The position numbers were made by a program, and so were the translations under genes. The notes under the pieces are model-generated. The model had not been told where the DNA came from. It worked only from the letters and a program-made list of their open reading frames with translations, and searched no databases. Shown here in pieces: positions 6,608 to 59,025 of a stretch of DNA of 64,000 bases. The stretch is from positions 1 to 64,000 of the forward strand of contig JAGLTS010000028.1 of assembly GCA_023135165.1 (NCBI GenBank), read 5' to 3'. This DNA comes from Phycisphaerales bacterium (GTDB lineage: Bacteria; Planctomycetota; Phycisphaerae; Phycisphaerales; JAGLTS01). The first letter of the stretch is position 1. Each line of letters begins with the position of its first letter.

Positions 6608-7558
6608 ATGAACTATGTGTTTGGTCCCGTACCGTCGCGCCGCCTTGGGCGTTCGCTGGGCGTTGATACGGTGCCCCTGAAGACATGCAATTGGAACTGC
6701 GTGTACTGCCAGATCGGCCGGAGCCGGCCCGTCGTGAACGCGCGCCGCGAGTACCTGCCGAAGGAAGATATCCTTGCGGAAGTGAAACATGCGCTGAGCC
6801 TGCATCAACCGGGTGACATCGATTGGGTGACGTTCGTCGCGTCCGGCGAAACGACGCTGCACAACGGCATCGGTTGGCTGATCCGTCAGGTCAAGGAGAT
6901 GACAGACATTCCAGTCGCGGTCATCACCAACGGATCGCTCCTTTCTCAACAGGAAGTGCGTGAGGAACTCATGGCATGCGATGCTGTGCTGCCCACGCTC
7001 GACGCGGGATCGAGTGAAGTGTTCCGGCGGCTGAACCGTCCGCATCCGGCCCTGACATTCGAGCGTCAAGTCGAAGGACTCATTGCGTTTCGTCGTGAGT
7101 TCACCGGCAGCCTGTGGATCGAAGTGATGCTCGTTCAGGGTGTGAACGACACGGAGGATGCGCTCAAAGACCTCCGAACAGTATTGGATCGCATCGGCCC
7201 CGATGAGGTGCATCTGGTCTCTCCGACGCGATCGCCGGTCGAAACATCAGTGCGTCCGACCGATGAAGCCGGGCTCATGCGGGCGACCGCGATCCTCGGA
7301 GAGATGATAACGGTCGCACCATCCCTCGATGTGACGACCGAGTTGAGGGGATCCGATTCAGTAGTCGACGCAGTGGTTGACATCGTGACGCGGCATCCAA
7401 TGAGTCAAGAACAACTGGAACGAGCGCTGGCGCAATGGGCGCCGGGCCACGTGGAAGAGGCGCTGCGTGATCTGCGCGCCGATCAGAGGGTCCAGACCGT
7501 CCGCAGATATGGGGTGCTATTTTGGACTGGTGCACATGCTGTCTATCCCGAGTCGTGA
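6608..7558 (+). CDS. Radical SAM enzyme (CxxxCxxC, COG0731-like N-terminus PSRRLGRSLGV)
   Basis: CNWNCVYCQ radical-SAM cysteine triad near the N-terminus. GGAGG RBS 9 nt upstream. Lies 255 bp upstream of the Sec-peroxiredoxin/YeeE cluster. Confidence 0.8.
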   Translation: MNYVFGPVPSRRLGRSLGVDTVPLKTCNWNCVYCQIGRSRPVVNARREYLPKEDILAEVKHALSLHQPGDIDWVTFVASGETTLHNGIGWLIRQVKEMTDIPVAVITNGSLLSQQEVREELMACDAVLPTLDAGSSEVFRRLNRPHPALTFERQVEGLIAFRREFTGSLWIEVMLVQGVNDTEDALKDLRTVLDRIGPDEVHLVSPTRSPVETSVRPTDEAGLMRATAILGEMITVAPSLDVTTELRGSDSVVDAVVDIVTRHPMSQEQLERALAQWAPGHVEEALRDLRADQRVQTVRRYGVLFWTGAHAVYPES

Positions 7559-7570
7559 CCGAGATGTGCA

Positions 7571-7600
7571 TTGACAGGGTTTACACAGGCAAGGTACAGT
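7571..7600 (+). promoter_or_regulatory. Candidate sigma70-like promoter (TTGACA-N18-TACAGT) upstream of the Sec-peroxiredoxin operon
   Basis: ttgaca at 7571-7576 and tacagt at 7595-7600, about 215 nt upstream of the prx ATG. Planctomycete promoter consensus is not well established. Confidence 0.25.
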
Positions 7601-7813
7601 CACGGGAGAGGCCCGCGACGGTCGTGGGCTTATCTGGGAATCCGTGGGTCACCCAGATCGTGTTGTTCCATCCGGGGCTGGTCGTGCGCGAAGGGGTTGA
7701 TGATGTCAGCATTGACTGATGGTTGTGTTCAGCCTGCTCGTGGGCCGATTGTGTCCACAACCGACTCCGAGGAGTCATCAATCGCAACCATACCGGCAAA
7801 GGAGGCAAGCATA

Positions 7814-8407
7814 ATGCGTGTCCAGGTTGGCAGAGAAGCTATCGACTTCGAAGCGAGTGCATTTATTGATGGCACGGGATTCAAACCAGTAAGGCTCACG
7901 GACTACAAGGGCAAGTGGATTGTCCTATGCTTTTACCCCGGTGACTTCACCTTCGTCTGACCGACAGAACTGGCGGCGGTCGCCGCCCGGTATGGTCAGT
8001 TGAAGGAACTGGGTGTGGAAGTCCTGGCGATGAGTGTGGACAGCCGATTTGTACACAAGATCTGGCAGGAGCAGGAACTGAGCAAGATGCTGGAGGGCGG
8101 AGTCCCGTTTCCCATGTTGTCGGATGCAGGCGGCAAGGTGGGCCGGATCTATGGTGTCTACGATGAGGCTGCCGGCGTTGATATCCGTGGTCGCTTCATC
8201 ATCGACCCGGACTTCGTCGTGCGTGCTATGGAAGTATTGACTGCGGAAGTCGGGCGAAGTCCCGATGAACTCATTCGTCAGATCAAGGCTTTTCAGCATG
8301 TCCGCGAAACCGGCGAAGTGACGCCATCGGGGTGGCAGCCCGGGCAGGTCGCGCTCAAGCCGGAACCCTCACTGGCCGGGAGGGTGTGGGAAGTCTGGAA
8401 ACCGTGA
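7814..8407 (+). CDS. Selenocysteine-containing peroxiredoxin (AhpC/Prx1-type; in-frame TGA at 7958-7960 replaces the peroxidatic Cys)
   Basis: Track ORFs 7571..7960 and 8000..8407 share a frame and are separated only by TGA. The joined product reads [14 protein letters not shown][U][30 protein letters not shown], the canonical FTFVCPTE Prx active site with TGA at the Cys codon. AAGGAGG RBS 8-10 nt before ATG 7814. The resolving Cys is absent (GEVTPSGW instead of GEVCP). Confidence 0.75.
7972..7987 (+). promoter_or_regulatory. Candidate bacterial SECIS stem-loop immediately downstream of the in-frame UGA
   Basis: ggcggcg-gt-cgccgcc perfect 7-bp GC stem starting 12 nt after the TGA. This is the position expected for a bacterial SECIS. 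Confidence 0.4.
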
Positions 8408-8457: not shown

Positions 8458-9012
8458 ATGAAGAACCCGTTGATGCTGACCACGTGGTCGCCCTACGTGG
8501 TGGGGGCGGGCATAGGCATCCTTTCCTGGGTCACCTTCGCCTGGATGGGCAAGGCCCTGGGAACGTCCACCACGATGGCTCGCACCGCAGGTGTACTCAC
8601 GGGGCTGGTCGCGCCGGATCACGTATATGGCAACGCGTACTATCAGAAGTACCTGGGCACGGCCGCCGAGCCAAAAGCCTGGTTCGAATGGCAGTTCGCG
8701 CTGGTCATCATGATGATCATCGGCGCGCTGGTCGCCGCGAAGCTGGCGCGATCCACGTTCGTCGAGCACGTGCCGGAACTGTGGACTTGGCGCTTCGGAC
8801 CGTCGAAGTGGAAGAGGTATCTCGTCGCGTTCGTGGGCGGCATCGTCTTATTGTTCGGCGCGCGACTGGCCGGGGGATGCACATCCGGGCACGGCATCTC
8901 CGGCGGCATGCAGCTTGCGGTTTCGAGCTGGGTGTTCTTCCTGGCGATGTTCGCGTCGGGAGTCGTGACCGCGTTCCTCATGTTCGGAGCAAAGGGGCGA
9001 AGCCATGTTTGA
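8458..9012 (+). CDS. YeeE/YedE family membrane protein (sulfur/selenium-compound transporter component, DUF395)
   Basis: ATG at 8458 with AAAGGAG RBS. GGCTSGHG motif and multiple TM helices. Lies 50 bp after the Prx stop. Confidence 0.8.
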   Translation: MKNPLMLTTWSPYVVGAGIGILSWVTFAWMGKALGTSTTMARTAGVLTGLVAPDHVYGNAYYQKYLGTAAEPKAWFEWQFALVIMMIIGALVAAKLARSTFVEHVPELWTWRFGPSKWKRYLVAFVGGIVLLFGARLAGGCTSGHGISGGMQLAVSSWVFFLAMFASGVVTAFLMFGAKGRSHV

Positions 9013-9604
9013 GAACTTCTTTGCCGGATGGGAGCCCGTGCTGATGGGTGCGGGGATTGGGCTGGTCTTCGGGTTTCTGCTCCAGAAGGCAGCCGTGACC
9101 CGCTACCAGACGATCCTCGGACAGTTCCTGTTCAAAGACTTCACCGTGCTGAAGGTGATGCTGACCGCAATCGTTGTCGGCGGGATCGGTATCTATGCCA
9201 TGCGGGCGATGAACCCCGACATGAAGATGCATATCAAGAACGCGGCGCTGTTGGGCAACGTCGTCGGCGGGCTTATCTTCGGCGTGGGGATGGCGATCCT
9301 CGGCTACTGCCCCGGTACGGGCACAGCGGCGCTGGGTGACGGCTCGCGGCATGTGATTCCCGGTCTGCTGGGCATGATCGTCGGCGCCGGCGTGTACGCC
9401 GAAGTGTATCCGTTCATCAAGGACGGTCTGCTCAAGATCGGTGTGATCACCGTGGATGAGACGAGCAAGGTGAGTCTGCCGCAGCTCACGCATTTGTCGC
9501 CATGGTGGTTCCTCGCAGCACTGACGGTCATCGCCGTGGTGGTGTTCCTGATCATCGAGCGCGCGGAACGGCGCAGCAAGGCGAAGCCTGCCGATTCTGT
9601 CTGA
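9005..9604 (+). CDS. YeeE/YedE family membrane protein, second half-transporter
   Basis: GYCPGT motif. 8-nt overlap (ATGTTTGA) with the upstream gene indicates translational coupling. Confidence 0.8.
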   Translation: MFENFFAGWEPVLMGAGIGLVFGFLLQKAAVTRYQTILGQFLFKDFTVLKVMLTAIVVGGIGIYAMRAMNPDMKMHIKNAALLGNVVGGLIFGVGMAILGYCPGTGTAALGDGSRHVIPGLLGMIVGAGVYAEVYPFIKDGLLKIGVITVDETSKVSLPQLTHLSPWWFLAALTVIAVVVFLIIERAERRSKAKPADSV

Positions 9605-17885: not shown

Positions 17886-18116
17886 TCGACCGCAGCCGGT
17901 CCATGAACGGTTCGAGATACGTGCATCAACAGCGATCGGCGGTTTTGCAGCCCCGCGCGGAAACGCGAGGCGCCCAGCCGGACGAGTCAGTGGGGCCGTG
18001 CGAATCGCAATTCCCTGCGTGCGCAAACAGCCTTCATCGGATGCCCAGGATAGACTGAGGACACCGCCACGCCTCGCGGTCTGGCCGGTATGACTCCCTG
18101 GAAAGGACACATCGCC

Positions 18117-20546
18117 ATGCAGAGACGCCGATTCACGTTGTTGCCGCTGAGACGTGTTGCGACAGTCGTGCTTGTCACGCTTGCTTGTCTCTTCGCCGCA
18201 CCGGACGCCCGCGCGCAAGGCACGCAGGGCCTCGTCCCCGACCCGATCACCAGCCGAGACCTCCGCGTGTATGCCGATCGGCTCGATCTGGCGAGCGACC
18301 AACGTCTCGCGCTGAGTGAGTTGCACCAGCAGTACCTTGAGCGGTTCAGCGAGCTGCGCGAAAGCGAGATTCAGGAACTGCTCGACCGCCTGTCGCAATT
18401 CAAGCCGATGCAGTTGCCCGGCGAGAAAGAGGTCAAGACGATGCTCGATCTTCGTCGGCGAGCCATGGCGCTCATCGAGGAGACCGATCGGCGGTTCTTC
18501 GAAGACGTCCGAGGCCTGCTCACGCCGACCCAGCAGGAACAACTTCCCAGGGTTGTTCGCGCACGCGCCAAGGAGCGCTACGAGGTCGACTTCGGCCCGG
18601 GCGGGTCGATGGATCTTGTCGAACTCATCGAGGGGCTTGAGTTCACGGATCAGGAGACCGACGCGATTGACGATGCGGTCGTTCAGTATGAGATCGCTTC
18701 GCTCGCGGCTGTGCGAGAACTGCACGACGTGACGCTGGAGATGTTCCTCAGCATCCTGAAAGAGCTTGAGAAGAGGGGATTCAGCGAGCAGTCGCTCCAA
18801 GATCCGACAGCGGCGGCGGGGATGTTCCAAGCCCTCCAGGAAGCGTACCGTGAAGCGAGCAAGGATCAGGTCAAGGCGACGAAGAACCTCGCAAGCCTGA
18901 CCACGCGAAGTCTGCGCCAGATCGCCGACCTGCTCCCGCCCGAGTCGGCAGACCGGCTCATGGATGCGTACAACCAGAAGGCCTACCCGCAGGTTTATCC
19001 CGATCGGGACTCAGCCCAAAGACTGCTGAACGCTGCCCTCGCACTGGATGACATCACTCTCGATGAGCAGTCCGCACTACTGGATCTTGCGCAGCGCCAT
19101 CGCGAGCAACACGATCGCCTCTGCAAGAAGATGGTCGAAGTGCTGGACGAGCAGAACGCCCGGCCGCTGGACTTCGATCAGCGATCCCGGCGCAAGCACC
19201 GGGAGCAACTCCGCGACCTCCGCACCCAGCGTGAGAAGCTCAATCGCACGACCGCCGACTCCGTTGCCGACCTGCTTGACGTCGATCGCTTCGCGCTCGC
19301 GCAGCGCGCCGCGAATCGCCTCGCCGGCGACGTGGCTGTTGACGACGAGCAGAGCCCCGCACCCGAAGTCATTCCTGATGAGTTCGAGTCCCTTGAGCAG
19401 CCGGCGCGCAGCGTCTACGCCCGACCGATCACGCGACGGGACATGGAGGTGTATGGCCGCGCACTCCGTCTTGACGCCGACCAGCGAGCTGCGCTGCGTT
19501 CGATGCACGAGGACTACCTTCATCAGTTCCAAGAGCTCCGCGACGGTCGAATCCAGACACTTGTCGACGAGCCGCGACGCAAGGTCTACAGCGAAGCGGG
19601 ACGCATCGACCTGGAGGCGGTGGAGGCGGTGCAGCGAGGGCGCGCCGAGGCGCGTGCGCTGATTGAGGAGCTTGACGCGAAGTTCCTCGACGATGTGGCC
19701 ATGCTCTTGACCGAGGAGCAGCATGCGGCGCTGTCGCAGGTCCGTCTGCGGCGCCGGCGCGCCATGTTCGATCTCGCGTTCGATCAGGCGTACTTCGTTT
19801 CACAGGATGATCCATCCAGGATTGATCTGGTCCAAGTCGTCGAGGGACTGTCTCTTGAGGATGCGCAGGCAGAGGTTGCCGATCCGATCTTGACGCAGTA
19901 TGTCGAGCGCATCGTTCCACTTCTCGACGACTTCTATGAGCTCGTGCTCGAGCAGAACAGCGCCTGGCTGAAGATCTACGCCCGGTACAGCCCCGAGGAG
20001 ATGGAGGAGACGCAGACGATGATGGAGGCGGGCATGGAGGCGCAGCAGGTGATCCGTGACATCGGGAAGCGCACCGCGCTGCTGCGAGCGGAGGCGGCTG
20101 AGATCACGGACGACACGCTCACCCGGCTCGAACAGGCGCTGCCTCCCCAGCAGGCGGATCGTCTCCTGGCTGCGTACTACGAGACGGCATACCCCGATGT
20201 GTATCCCGATCACGACGCTTCCGATCCCGTGTTTGACGAGGCGATGGGGCTGCGCGACCTGACCACGCCCCAGTACGAAGAGCTTCAAGCCGCCTTTGAT
20301 CACTACGCAGCCGAGCATGACAGGTTGTGCAGCGAGATGATCGACATCGTGTCGAAATACAACCGTAGCGGGCAGTCGCCGTATGATCCGGACAGCATGC
20401 AGGAGCAGCAGCGATACCGCACGCAGCTTGAGCGATTGGAGTTTGAGCGAAGCGAACTGAACGCCCTTGTCCGCACGCGGATCGGAGCGGTGCTCACACC
20501 CGAGCAAGTGAAACGCATGCGCTCGTTGCGACATGACGACGAATGA
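18117..20546 (+). CDS. Secreted alpha-helical protein with repeated LTXXQ-type motifs and an internal duplication (Spy/CpxP-like repeats)
   Basis: Start at internal ATG 18117 (MQRRRFTLLPL...signal ending ARAQG). Two homologous halves (DLRVYADRLDLASDQRLALSELHQQYLERFSELRESEIQ vs DMEVYGRALRLDADQRAALRSMHEDYLHQFQELRDGRIQ). LLTPTQQ / LLTEEQ / LTPEQ motifs. Confidence 0.6.
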   Translation: MQRRRFTLLPLRRVATVVLVTLACLFAAPDARAQGTQGLVPDPITSRDLRVYADRLDLASDQRLALSELHQQYLERFSELRESEIQELLDRLSQFKPMQLPGEKEVKTMLDLRRRAMALIEETDRRFFEDVRGLLTPTQQEQLPRVVRARAKERYEVDFGPGGSMDLVELIEGLEFTDQETDAIDDAVVQYEIASLAAVRELHDVTLEMFLSILKELEKRGFSEQSLQDPTAAAGMFQALQEAYREASKDQVKATKNLASLTTRSLRQIADLLPPESADRLMDAYNQKAYPQVYPDRDSAQRLLNAALALDDITLDEQSALLDLAQRHREQHDRLCKKMVEVLDEQNARPLDFDQRSRRKHREQLRDLRTQREKLNRTTADSVADLLDVDRFALAQRAANRLAGDVAVDDEQSPAPEVIPDEFESLEQPARSVYARPITRRDMEVYGRALRLDADQRAALRSMHEDYLHQFQELRDGRIQTLVDEPRRKVYSEAGRIDLEAVEAVQRGRAEARALIEELDAKFLDDVAMLLTEEQHAALSQVRLRRRRAMFDLAFDQAYFVSQDDPSRIDLVQVVEGLSLEDAQAEVADPILTQYVERIVPLLDDFYELVLEQNSAWLKIYARYSPEEMEETQTMMEAGMEAQQVIRDIGKRTALLRAEAAEITDDTLTRLEQALPPQQADRLLAAYYETAYPDVYPDHDASDPVFDEAMGLRDLTTPQYEELQAAFDHYAAEHDRLCSEMIDIVSKYNRSGQSPYDPDSMQEQQRYRTQLERLEFERSELNALVRTRIGAVLTPEQVKRMRSLRHDDE

Positions 20547-55628: not shown

Positions 55629-55884
55629 CTGTCAGCCTCGTAAGCGTGAGCGCCGCGCGTGGCGTCGGCGGCGCATGGGTCTTGGTGTACATCCACCACG
55701 CAGGAGTAAGGGCAACGCCGATGCCAGAACGGATCGGCCCTGATGCGGTCGTGAGGCGGGTTCAGGGCGGGCGCATCTGCCGGTTTGGCAGGACCGGCCG
55801 CGCCGGGACGCCGCCCGGGCACAGGCGGGCCTGCTGCGTTTCGTGCGGCCGCGCTTCCCTTCGGGGCGCGGCTACACTGCGGAC

Positions 55885-57405
55885 ATGACCGGGTCGTACG
55901 ACTGGATCGCGTGGACGGCCGGTGGGTTCGTCGGCCTGCTCGGCGTGTACTTGGCGCTGCGGGCGCTTCTTGTCGACGGATTCAGACGGCGCTGGCACAA
56001 GCAGCGGCGCTGCCCCAAGTGCTGGTACGACATGCGCCACACGCCGGGGGCGACGTGCAGCGAATGTGGGTTCACAGCCAAGCGGGAACGTCAGCTTTTC
56101 AAAGCGCGACGCCGATGGCGCTGGGTGGCGGTCGCGCTTCTCCTCATAGCGATCGGTTGGGGCGGCGGCGTGTATCCCAAAGCGCGGCGCGACGGCTGGC
56201 GCTCCGTTGTGCCGACGACGGTGCTGATCGCAGCCCTGCCCTGGTTGGATGAACCAGAGACCCCGATTGAGGGAGGACTCACACGCGTGGGGCCGCAAGG
56301 TGCCACCAAGTTGCGTTCGCTTCACAGCGAACTCACGTGCCGCGCAAAGGACGACCTGCTCTGGGATTGGCAGTGGCACTGGCTGGCCCGGCGCTCCTGC
56401 GCGGGCGATGCTGCTCGGCGTCCACCATCGCAGCGCTGGCACGACACGTATCGACGCCTCCTGAACAGCGCCATAGGGGCTGGACACCCTTGGGACGACA
56501 GGATGCTGCCCGCCCTGGCTGTCGCCGACATCGCCGTGCGCCACCGATGGCCCGCGGACCAACCTCTTCAAGCACGATGCATCATCGAGAGGCGTTACTC
56601 GCACAAGAGGCTGGAGATAAACGAGCTACTCGTTCAAATCGCCCCACGCATCCCTGGCTTGTCGCCGGTGGAGAAGCGCCTCTCCGAGTATCTCTTCTCC
56701 GCGCGTTCCAACGACTACGTCTGGCGCTTGCCTGCTCGATCGTGCTGGCAGGATCCCACACCCGGAGAACTCACCACGCTCGGCTCGGTGCCGTGCGGTA
56801 CGACACACATCGATTTCGACATCAGCTTTGGGCAGATCGACGAGGAGACTGGTATCGCAGAGCCCATCTGGTCGACCGTGGTGCGCACGCCGATTGACGT
56901 GGTCGAGACAACGGCGGATGCTCTGGTTGCGGTCCAAGCACCGGCTGTCGAGGAGGCGATTCGCACAGAGCTCGATCTCGACGAGTGGTACATCGTGCCC
57001 CGCGCCATCGGTTTCGAGCATGCCATCGCGGCGCTTGCCGACCTTGCCCCAATCACGCTGGCGGTGACGATCGAGTTCGTGGATGGCGAGGAAGTGATGT
57101 TCTCGGCAAGCGCCTGGTGGTCGGTTCGCCGCGCACCCGACAGTACGGGGGCGGCTGATGTGGCCGTCACACCAGCGACGCCTTGGGTGTGGCTGCGCAT
57201 GACACACGAGACAAGTCGCCCGATCTGGACCCGTGGCCGCGCTGGGTCGGACATAGTCTCGCTACGGATTCGCAGTGATCCGGCGGTGGCGCTGCGCAAC
57301 TTCGACTGTGACCGCTACTGGGTCGGCGAGGTCACCATTCCACTGAGGTGGTCGGACGAGGGCCAGCTCGTGCCGGACCAAGGCGCACGCGGCGGCGGCG
57401 AGTAG
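55885..57405 (+). CDS. Zinc-ribbon two-TM membrane protein, paralog A (unknown function)
   Basis: Start at internal ATG 55885 (MTGSYDWIAWTAGGFVGLLGV...). TM1, then CPKCWYDMRHTPGATCSEC zinc ribbon, then TM2, then a large extracytoplasmic domain. Confidence 0.55.
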   Translation: MTGSYDWIAWTAGGFVGLLGVYLALRALLVDGFRRRWHKQRRCPKCWYDMRHTPGATCSECGFTAKRERQLFKARRRWRWVAVALLLIAIGWGGGVYPKARRDGWRSVVPTTVLIAALPWLDEPETPIEGGLTRVGPQGATKLRSLHSELTCRAKDDLLWDWQWHWLARRSCAGDAARRPPSQRWHDTYRRLLNSAIGAGHPWDDRMLPALAVADIAVRHRWPADQPLQARCIIERRYSHKRLEINELLVQIAPRIPGLSPVEKRLSEYLFSARSNDYVWRLPARSCWQDPTPGELTTLGSVPCGTTHIDFDISFGQIDEETGIAEPIWSTVVRTPIDVVETTADALVAVQAPAVEEAIRTELDLDEWYIVPRAIGFEHAIAALADLAPITLAVTIEFVDGEEVMFSASAWWSVRRAPDSTGAADVAVTPATPWVWLRMTHETSRPIWTRGRAGSDIVSLRIRSDPAVALRNFDCDRYWVGEVTIPLRWSDEGQLVPDQGARGGGE

Positions 57406-57510
57406 CGCGAGACGGATGCGGGTTGTCGGCCGGACGTGCATCGGCCCGAGACGGGCCGGCTCTGTTTCGTGCGGTCGCGCTTCCCTTCGGGGCGCGGGTA
57501 CACTGCGGAC

Positions 57511-59025
57511 ATGACCGGGTCGTACGACTGGATCGCGTGGACGGCCGGTGGGTTCGTCGGCCTGCTCGGCGTGTGCCTCGCACTGTGGGCGCTGTTTGTC
57601 GACGGATTCAGACGACGTTGGCACAGGCAGCGGCGCTGCCCGAAGTGCTGGTACGACATGCGCCACACGCCCGGAGCAACGTGCAGCGAGTGCGGGTTCA
57701 CAGCCAAGCGCGAACGTCAGCTTTTCAAAGCGCGACGGCGATGGCGCTGGGCGGCGGTCGCGGTTCTCCTCATGGGGATCGGTTGGGGCGGCGGCGTGTA
57801 TCCCAAGGCGCGGCGCGACGGCTGGCGCTCTGTCGTGCCGACGACGGTGCTGATCGCAGCGCTGCCCTGGTTGGACCCACCACGGAACCAACAGCGTTCT
57901 GTGCAGTGGCTACTGCCACCGCAGCCCTCCCTCTTGAACGAGCTTGACGATCGCGCAGCACCACAGAATCAGCTTTGGGACTGGCAGTGGCGGTGGCTGA
58001 TCGACCGGGCGTACACGGGTGATGCAGCACGCAGGTCCCCCTCAGAGCAATGGCACAGCAAGTACGGGCGACTCATGTGCTGGGCCGATGTAAGCGGCCA
58101 CCTCGACGATGATCCGCGCCGCCAAGAGAGAATACTGCCTTGCCTCGCCATCGCTGACATCGCCGTGCGCGATCGCTGGCCTGCCGAACTGCCCCTGCAA
58201 GCCCGATGGGTCATCCGTAGCGGGTGGCCCCTCTGGGACAGCACGATGAACGAGTTGACCGTTCGAATCACACCCAGAGACCCGGTGTTGTCACCGATCG
58301 AACAGCACCTCACCCCTCCTTTCCTTGCCAGCCTTGACTCCGAGGCCTTGGGGATCTCCACGCGAGGATACCGGCTGGATCGATGCTGGGAACTTGCGAC
58401 ACTCGGTTTGTTGCCGGTCGGCACGACGCACATCGACTTCGACATCACGTTCGAGCAGACCGGCGAGGCTGCGGGTGTCGCCATGCCCCTCTGGTCCACC
58501 GTCGTTCGACGGCCAATCGAGGTGGTCGAGACGATCCAGGATGTGCTCGTTGCGGTTCCGTCACCGGCCGTTGACGAGGCGATCCGGACCGTATTTCAGA
58601 TCCTCGACCGCTGGGAACAGATTCCGGGCTACATCGGCTTTCAGCATGTTCTCGCGGAGCTTGCCGACCTTGCGCCGATCACGCTTGCGGTGACGATCGA
58701 GTACGTTCACGGTGACGAGGTCCTGTGCTCAATGAGCGTCTGGTGGGACGTGCAGCGGGCGGCAGCTGGGGCAGTGAGTGCGCAGGTTGCGCCAGAGGAG
58801 TATCGCGTGCGTTGGCGGATGACGGATCGCGTCAAGCAACGAATCAGGGCACACGCTCGGGAGGGTCCCGGAGCGGTGTCGCTGCGGATTCGCAGTGATC
58901 CGGCGGTAGCGCTGCGCAACTTCGATTGTGACCGCTACTGGGTCGGCGAGGTCACGATTCCATTGAGGTGGTCGGACGGTGGCCGGCTTGTGCCGGACCA
59001 AGGCGCACGCGGCGACGGTGAGTAG
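57511..59025 (+). CDS. Zinc-ribbon two-TM membrane protein, paralog B (tandem duplicate of 55885..57405)
   Basis: The N-terminal about 130 aa and C-terminal about 48 aa are near-identical to paralog A. The central about 330 aa are diverged. Confidence 0.55.
   Translation: MTGSYDWIAWTAGGFVGLLGVCLALWALFVDGFRRRWHRQRRCPKCWYDMRHTPGATCSECGFTAKRERQLFKARRRWRWAAVAVLLMGIGWGGGVYPKARRDGWRSVVPTTVLIAALPWLDPPRNQQRSVQWLLPPQPSLLNELDDRAAPQNQLWDWQWRWLIDRAYTGDAARRSPSEQWHSKYGRLMCWADVSGHLDDDPRRQERILPCLAIADIAVRDRWPAELPLQARWVIRSGWPLWDSTMNELTVRITPRDPVLSPIEQHLTPPFLASLDSEALGISTRGYRLDRCWELATLGLLPVGTTHIDFDITFEQTGEAAGVAMPLWSTVVRRPIEVVETIQDVLVAVPSPAVDEAIRTVFQILDRWEQIPGYIGFQHVLAELADLAPITLAVTIEYVHGDEVLCSMSVWWDVQRAAAGAVSAQVAPEEYRVRWRMTDRVKQRIRAHAREGPGAVSLRIRSDPAVALRNFDCDRYWVGEVTIPLRWSDGGRLVPDQGARGDGE

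Follow-up and report, generated by a model that had tools for sequence, protein, structure and literature searches.

An intact prxU gene with a predicted selenocysteine at the peroxidatic position in a Phycisphaerales contig

Results

The prxU locus and its product

Two open reading frames in the same frame of the forward strand (7571..7960 and 8000..8407) were found in the window, by which we mean the whole 64-kb stretch of DNA analysed here, and, as the original prediction had read them, they are parted solely by the TGA at 7958-7960. Readthrough of this codon from the ATG at 7814 gave a product of 197 residues that reads FTFV*PTE around the stop and is, as claimed, of the AhpC/Prx1 type. 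The complete reading frame and the features that it contains are as follows, all on the forward strand.

7700..8407, forward strand: full prxU reading frame in its long form, 235 codons including that for selenocysteine (Sec), starting at ATG 7700 or 7703 and ending at the stop TGA 8405-8407
7718..7750, forward strand: conserved tail motif DGCVxPARGPI with a candidate tethered resolving cysteine (TGT 7724-7726), the cysteine being invariant in orthologues
7799..7816, forward strand: internal Shine-Dalgarno sequence AAGGAGG (7799-7805), 8-nt spacer and ATG 7814-7816, conserved in orthologues
7958..7960, forward strand: in-frame TGA, the predicted selenocysteine codon at the peroxidatic position, from its conservation and its alignment with the peroxidatic cysteine of Prx2
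7972..7987, forward strand: predicted SECIS minihelix made up of GGCGGCG (7972-7978), GU (7979-7980) and CGCCGCC (7981-7987), from covariation
8321..8323, forward strand: threonine codon ACG at the canonical C-terminal resolving-cysteine position (GEVTPSGW), from the Prx2 alignment (7kj1, E 4e-47)

Pfam analysis of the readthrough product returned AhpC-TSA (PF00578, E 5.5e-37) together with 1-cysPrx_C. Against NCBIfam, using a query that carried C in place of U, the product scored 368.6 bits with the equivalog family NF040737 (peroxi_PrxU), passing the curated cut-off of 270, and residues 7-234 were aligned with profile positions 2-230 of 233, so that the N-terminal extension was covered as well. 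The active-site motif PGDFTFV-U-PTE (PxxxTxxU, or TxxU) can be read directly from the sequence, with the predicted selenocysteine as residue 86 of 235 in the long-form product. The best matches among solved structures were human Prx2 (7kj1) and AhpC, with E values of 4e-47 to 3e-45 over residues 41-229. The 148 codons 3' of the TGA contain no further stops or frameshifts.

The expectation that a standard pipeline would misannotate this gene proved correct, as GenBank keeps just a 135-aa C-terminal fragment, MCK4872135.1, which corresponds to the second open reading frame. This record, a "redoxin domain-containing protein" with 99% identity from a 139-kb Phycisphaerales MAG contig, begins downstream of the TGA, and both the sole catalytic residue and the selenium use of the organism are therefore invisible in it. 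The closest homologues (80-87% identity) were either 145-aa fragments that start immediately 3' of the TGA or gene calls by JGI that place W there (FTFVWPTE). The 145-aa fragment clusters P0089 and P0100 comprise 139 and 151 members, and the JGI calls with Trp at the Sec codon are P0001-P0003.

Conservation of the in-frame TGA

Related copies were collected from genomes and metagenomes that span many phyla; the same codon is TGA in 159 of 165 of them and Cys (TGC or TGT) in 6. These 165 copies were compiled from two scans and from individually fetched contigs, five of the latter being of the Cys form, and they include 132 unique TGA sequences. The scan of species-representative genomes yielded 80 loci, with TGA in 82 of 83 copies when the window and locus L001 were counted, from taxa that included Chloroflexota/Anaerolineae, Desulfobacterota, Acidobacteriota, Planctomycetia, Ignavibacteria, Actinomycetota and the isolate Desulfothermobacter acidiphilus, among others. 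The metagenome scan, which was seeded with the Cys-form alignment, also yielded 80 loci, and every recovered copy was again of the TGA form. Cys homologues P0009, P0016 and P0058 read FTFVCPTE at the site, and Cys is found in several homologues that are slightly further removed. Alignment of U against Cys-containing homologues, a check proposed with the original prediction, placed the TGA codon on the peroxidatic cysteine, and the stops at differing positions that would be the mark of random pseudogenization were not what the orthologues displayed.

A sequencing or assembly error was considered as the origin of the TGA. The window comes from a single MAG contig, and errors do occur, but the identical codon and the hairpin downstream of it recur in about 160 independent assemblies, and the deposited GenBank protein from the contig starts downstream of the same stop. 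We regard the probability of such an error as negligible.

Selection was then considered on the two sides of the codon. Between the window copy and eight orthologues, dN/dS was approximately 0.06-0.11 where dS was estimable, synonymous sites being saturated in the remaining comparisons, and the ratio was approximately 0.1 or less both for the 47 codons before the TGA and for the 148 codons after it. Purifying selection is equal on both sides of the TGA, and the region 3' of it is therefore translated.

These results bear on whether the gene could be a pseudogene or relic, either inactivated by a change of TGC or TGT to TGA or stranded as a Sec gene after loss of the Sec machinery, with translation stopping at 7958. 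Such a reading would agree with the GenBank annotation of a fragment only, and also with the gene content of the 64-kb window, in which ARAGORN (which found only a tRNA-Ala) and Pfam analysis of 36 long ORFs revealed no selA, selB, selD or tRNA-Sec. However, a decaying gene would not be expected to share an identical TGA with the great majority of related copies across many phyla, to keep dN/dS 3' of the TGA as low as upstream, to remain open over all 148 downstream codons, or to retain in the window copy a perfect SECIS with the invariant GU of the family (see below). We therefore assign the pseudogene reading only a small probability. Given that the window contains no sel genes, we infer the capacity of the host to decode Sec from the intact, selected gene and its intact SECIS. 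A scan of the 64-kb window for further genes that combine an in-frame TGA and a coding signature returned three spurious candidates and no second selenoprotein candidate.

The downstream hairpin

The 7-bp GC hairpin noted in the original prediction is present, with a spacer of 11 nt, so that its first stem base is the 12th nucleotide after the TGA. Taken alone, the window hairpin is not statistically remarkable: single-sequence folding gave a z-score of -1.48, and 20 of 200 shuffles folded equally well in a sequence of 63% GC. Moreover, four of the seven pairs are forced by the encoded A-A-V-A-A, because GCN GCN GTN GCN GCN can pair with itself at the first and second codon positions. The significance of the hairpin rests on comparison with orthologues.

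In this comparison, the stem was located at the identical column, gap-free, in all 82 aligned sequences, and 94% of the cells of the 7-bp helix were paired in the ungapped alignment. We observed 70 double-change cells in comparison with 19.4 +/- 10.5 in shuffles, none of 500 shuffles reaching the observed number, and the covariation score was 0.331 as opposed to 0.173 for shuffled alignments and 0.16 or lower for slid controls. Changes on both sides were seen in 4 of the 7 pairs, with the caveat that four pairs are partly fixed by Ala codons. The three pairs that involve third codon positions only were paired in 90%, 100% and 98% of the 132 unique TGA orthologues, and the innermost pair (21-24) was found as AU in 40 and GC in 39, through paired synonymous changes (GCG/GTC versus GCA/GTT). 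The apical GU was invariant, being present in all 132 unique TGA forms. The corresponding control in Cys forms, of which 3 had fully paired hairpins, is too small to be informative (n = 6).

The SECIS of E. coli fdhF begins as a minihelix 11 nt after the UGA and has a palindromic stem, GCAG-GU-CUGC, with a role for G23/U24. The prxU hairpin shares with it the position within the coding sequence directly 3' of the UGA, the 11-nt spacing and the palindrome around an apical G-U, whereas its stem sequence is different and also encodes L-A-A-V-A-A, and no bulged U is evident. A small apical loop with a conserved G is a described feature of bacterial SECIS elements (PMC1088965). Rfam searches of the whole window at gathering thresholds, and of 7900-8060 at E values up to 10, gave no SECIS match, an uninformative outcome, the library being without a matching bacterial family. 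Collectively, the comparative evidence leads us to predict that the hairpin is a standard bacterial SECIS.

The same evidence bears on the possibility that TGA specifies a standard amino acid here, whether as Trp or Gly under genetic codes 4 or 25 or as Cys or Trp by near-cognate readthrough, for which the W in the JGI gene calls could be taken as an indication. Those W calls, however, come from contigs of approximately 1 kb, where gene callers can favour the longer ORF. TGA ends 16 of the 20 Pfam-supported genes of the window, among them prxU itself, at the conserved C-terminus of the family; it is thus an ordinary stop in this genome, and recoding at prxU would be site-specific. A peroxidatic Trp or Gly would abolish catalysis, yet purifying selection on the gene is strong, and a reassigned code would leave both the covarying hairpin and its invariant GU unexplained. 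To this reading we assign a probability smaller still than that of a pseudogene.

The central claim of the original prediction, namely Sec at a peroxidatic UGA followed by a SECIS and concealed by a split annotation, is thus supported by TGA conservation, covariation, selection and the match to NF040737. With high confidence, which extends to this explanation as a whole, we take 7700-8407 on the forward strand to be an intact prxU gene that would encode a thioredoxin-fold peroxiredoxin of the AhpC/Prx1 type with a peroxidatic selenocysteine.

Two other loci deserve separate description. Of the 80 genome loci, only L051 (6247) holds a copy with Cys (TGC), and this copy retains a perfect GGCGGCG-GU-CGCCGCC hairpin; it looks like a recent Sec-to-Cys conversion. 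Locus L050, a Deltaproteobacteria MAG contig, carries two prxU paralogues at 1910 and 7252, approximately 5.3 kb apart, both with TGA and SECIS.

The N-terminal tail and the resolving cysteine

The replacement of the resolving cysteine by Thr (GEVTPSGW), which had also been claimed, was borne out by alignment to human Prx2. Across the family, T occupies the canonical resolving position in 123 copies, with M, A, L or V there in 22 and C in only 3. From this replacement the product had been labelled a 1-Sec peroxiredoxin. The canonical resolving cysteine is indeed absent, but the label itself is doubtful, because a cysteine in the N-terminal tail is invariant.

The tail came to light in the orthologues, which run on in frame upstream of ATG 7814 with M-x-E-x-K-D-G-C-V-x-P-A-R-G-P-I, followed by a linker rich in A, P, S, E and T and then by the canonical domain. 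The tail cysteine was found in every one of the 163 copies whose upstream sequence was long enough, and 150 of 156 copies have 27-30 aa between it and the internal start. In an AF2 monomer model of the Cys homologue P0009 (overall pLDDT 86), the tail motif had a pLDDT of 63-67 and the linker fell below 50. The 38-residue Cys-bearing tail is without counterpart in solved Prx structures. A cysteine on a linker of constrained length is the obvious candidate for the resolving residue.

Two start signals

The original prediction had placed the start of the gene at ATG 7814, behind an AAGGAGG ribosome-binding site. This signal is real and conserved, but it is not the start of the reading frame, as the start in orthologues lies 37-38 codons further upstream. 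ATG serves as the upstream start in 144 of 157 orthologues, GGAGG or AGGAG accompanies the start in 140 of 157, and the start lies 7 codons before the cysteine in 137. In the window, the upstream start, ATG 7703 (or 7700), is preceded by GAAGGGG.

The internal signal comprises GGAGG in 141 of 158 unique orthologues, with a modal spacer of 8 nt, and ATG or GTG in 127 of 158. Codon choice at the internal site is strongly skewed: the GAG:GAA ratio for Glu is 120:1, in comparison to 969:1192 elsewhere in these genes, and the AAG:AAA ratio for Lys is 65:4, in comparison to 1149:897 (Fisher p 5e-39 for Glu and 4e-12 for Lys, both inflated by sequence relatedness). The internal start signal is, on comparative grounds, conserved at the nucleotide level.

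Among Cys forms, the internal signal is kept by four cytoplasmic ones and absent from two signal-peptide-bearing planctomycete ones. These two (loci L085 and L086, proteins P0047 and P0051) keep DxCxxPARGP after the signal peptide and have no internal GGAGG and ATG, a pattern (n = 2) that fits an internal start useful for cytoplasmic forms only.

As there are two conserved in-frame Shine-Dalgarno and ATG signals (at 7700/7703 and at 7814), one prxU gene probably yields two isoforms, a long one with the tail and a short one without it; the short isoform, if made, would be without the tail cysteine. Purified PrxU of E. acidaminophilum is reportedly of approximately 203 aa, with Sec47, and would presumably match the short isoform from the internal ATG. 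A more detailed model, in which the tail cysteine of the long isoform forms a Se-S bond with Sec, the short isoform is a true 1-Sec enzyme and their ratio tunes recycling or oligomer behaviour, we put forward tentatively, leaning slightly against it. We found neither the tail nor the dual start described in the literature searched, which leaves most subscription journals outside it, and both may be known.

Genomic neighbourhood

Three further features flank the reading frame.

7571..7600, forward strand: promoter-like TTGACA-18 nt-TACAGT, weak, with 10 of 12 consensus matches
8458-9012, forward strand: half-size YeeE/YedE (Sulf_transp) membrane protein gene (PF04143, E 1.7e-21)
9005-9604, forward strand: second, overlapping half-size YeeE/YedE (Sulf_transp) membrane protein gene (PF04143, E 2.7e-20)

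The promoter-like site lies just after a radical SAM gene and approximately 100 nt before the long-form start; only this position is suggestive, as the count is no more than chance (1 found against 0.9 expected in shuffles). The radical SAM gene itself (6608-7558), directly upstream of prxU, carries a CNWNCVYC motif and was recognized by Pfam only, with no NCBIfam family above cut-off. Radical SAM homologues adjoin prxU in seven other loci (L004, L024, L051, L055, L099, L114 and L139).

The YeeE/YedE genes, which overlap by 8 nt, begin 50 nt after the prxU stop and are probably co-transcribed with prxU. NCBIfam gave weak, below-cut-off matches of the pair to TsuA and YedE/FdhT. In L068 and L076 as well, prxU is followed by this pair, which could be a link to sulfur or selenium transport. 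In Neorhodopirellula (L086), two Sulf_transp genes are located two genes after the Cys-form prx, behind a Lactamase_B+Rhodanese gene. Conservation of the prxU neighbourhood is weak, with the radical SAM gene in seven loci and the YeeE pair in two to three, and we claim no functional operon beyond the window.

The remainder of the window (13229-63635) is typical of Planctomycetota. Its products include a DUF1559 protein, two proteins with FGE-sulfatase domains, one of them a fusion to a Ser/Thr kinase, enzymes of the GH95, GH57 and alpha-amylase types, a C25 peptidase and a Rho protein of 651 aa that is extended far at its N-terminus. The long ORFs 18090-20546, 55843-57405 and 57436-59025 gave no Pfam match.

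Discussion

Our analysis of this contig points to an ordinary prxU gene that belongs to the known selenoperoxiredoxin family (TxxU) and does not represent a new kind of gene. TxxU peroxiredoxins are a family of selenoproteins established by experiment (Söhling 2001, as cited in PMC13188914), and the gene resembles PrxU of Eubacterium acidaminophilum (NF040737; "Prx, TxxU" in the Zhang/Gladyshev selenoproteome surveys) in its AhpC/Prx1 fold, in Sec within PxxxTxxU and in a SECIS directly downstream. Its architecture, with Sec86 of 235 residues, essentially matches that of the C. sticklandii selenoperoxiredoxin, in which Sec is residue 84 of 240 (PMC3091704). Nothing essential sets it apart from known PrxU proteins; the host is a Phycisphaerales (Planctomycetota) MAG instead of a Firmicute or deltaproteobacterium.

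The suggestion that such proteins occur in a few anaerobes did not hold. PrxU is among the commonest bacterial selenoproteins, with 43 TxxU Prx genes in Sargasso Sea data (PMC1088965) and 253 in GOS (PMC2398784), and occurrences in Syntrophus, Geobacter, Anaeromyxobacter, Alkaliphilus, Symbiobacterium and others (PMC1794560), and our own genome scan recovered it from many phyla.

Two other groups of proteins call for comparison. Typical 2-Cys peroxiredoxins (human Prx2, 7kj1/1qmv; Amphibacillus AhpC, 1we0) share the active-site motif and the GEVxPxGW segment, whereas the window protein has Sec for the peroxidatic Cys, the extra 38-residue Cys-bearing tail and, at 8321-8323, Thr where members of that class carry the resolving Cys of GEVCPxxW. 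The UxxC/UxxU Prx-like thiol:disulfide oxidoreductases and Prx-SUH (CxxU) have in common with it the AhpC-TSA fold and a Sec residue that forms part of a redox motif (PMC13188914), but their Sec sits in a thioredoxin-like UxxC or CxxU. The window protein has a true Prx TxxU motif and therefore belongs to neither of these families.

From the established bacterial Sec pathway, a mechanistic model can be proposed. SelB·GTP·Sec-tRNA(Sec) would bind the hairpin at 7972-7987, 11 nt 3' of the UGA at 7958-7960, and the UGA would receive Sec rather than release factor 2. In the folded enzyme, the selenolate in the PxxxTxxU pocket would reduce H2O2 or organic hydroperoxides and be converted to a selenenic acid. 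Because the canonical C-terminal resolving Cys is Thr, recycling would most likely proceed via the tail cysteine (Cys9), which sits on the flexible linker of 27-30 residues, giving a selenenylsulfide that would then be reduced by thioredoxin; alternatively, thioredoxin may attack directly.

The main value of this finding lies in annotation, since the same error is systematic in public data, where hundreds of 145-aa fragments and W translations stand for the gene. The tail cysteine on its constrained linker, together with the two start signals, may offer a modest lead for Prx enzymology if they are undescribed. For the organism, the presence of prxU implies that this planctomycete would decode Sec and invest it in peroxide defence, as is expected for a family known since 2001.
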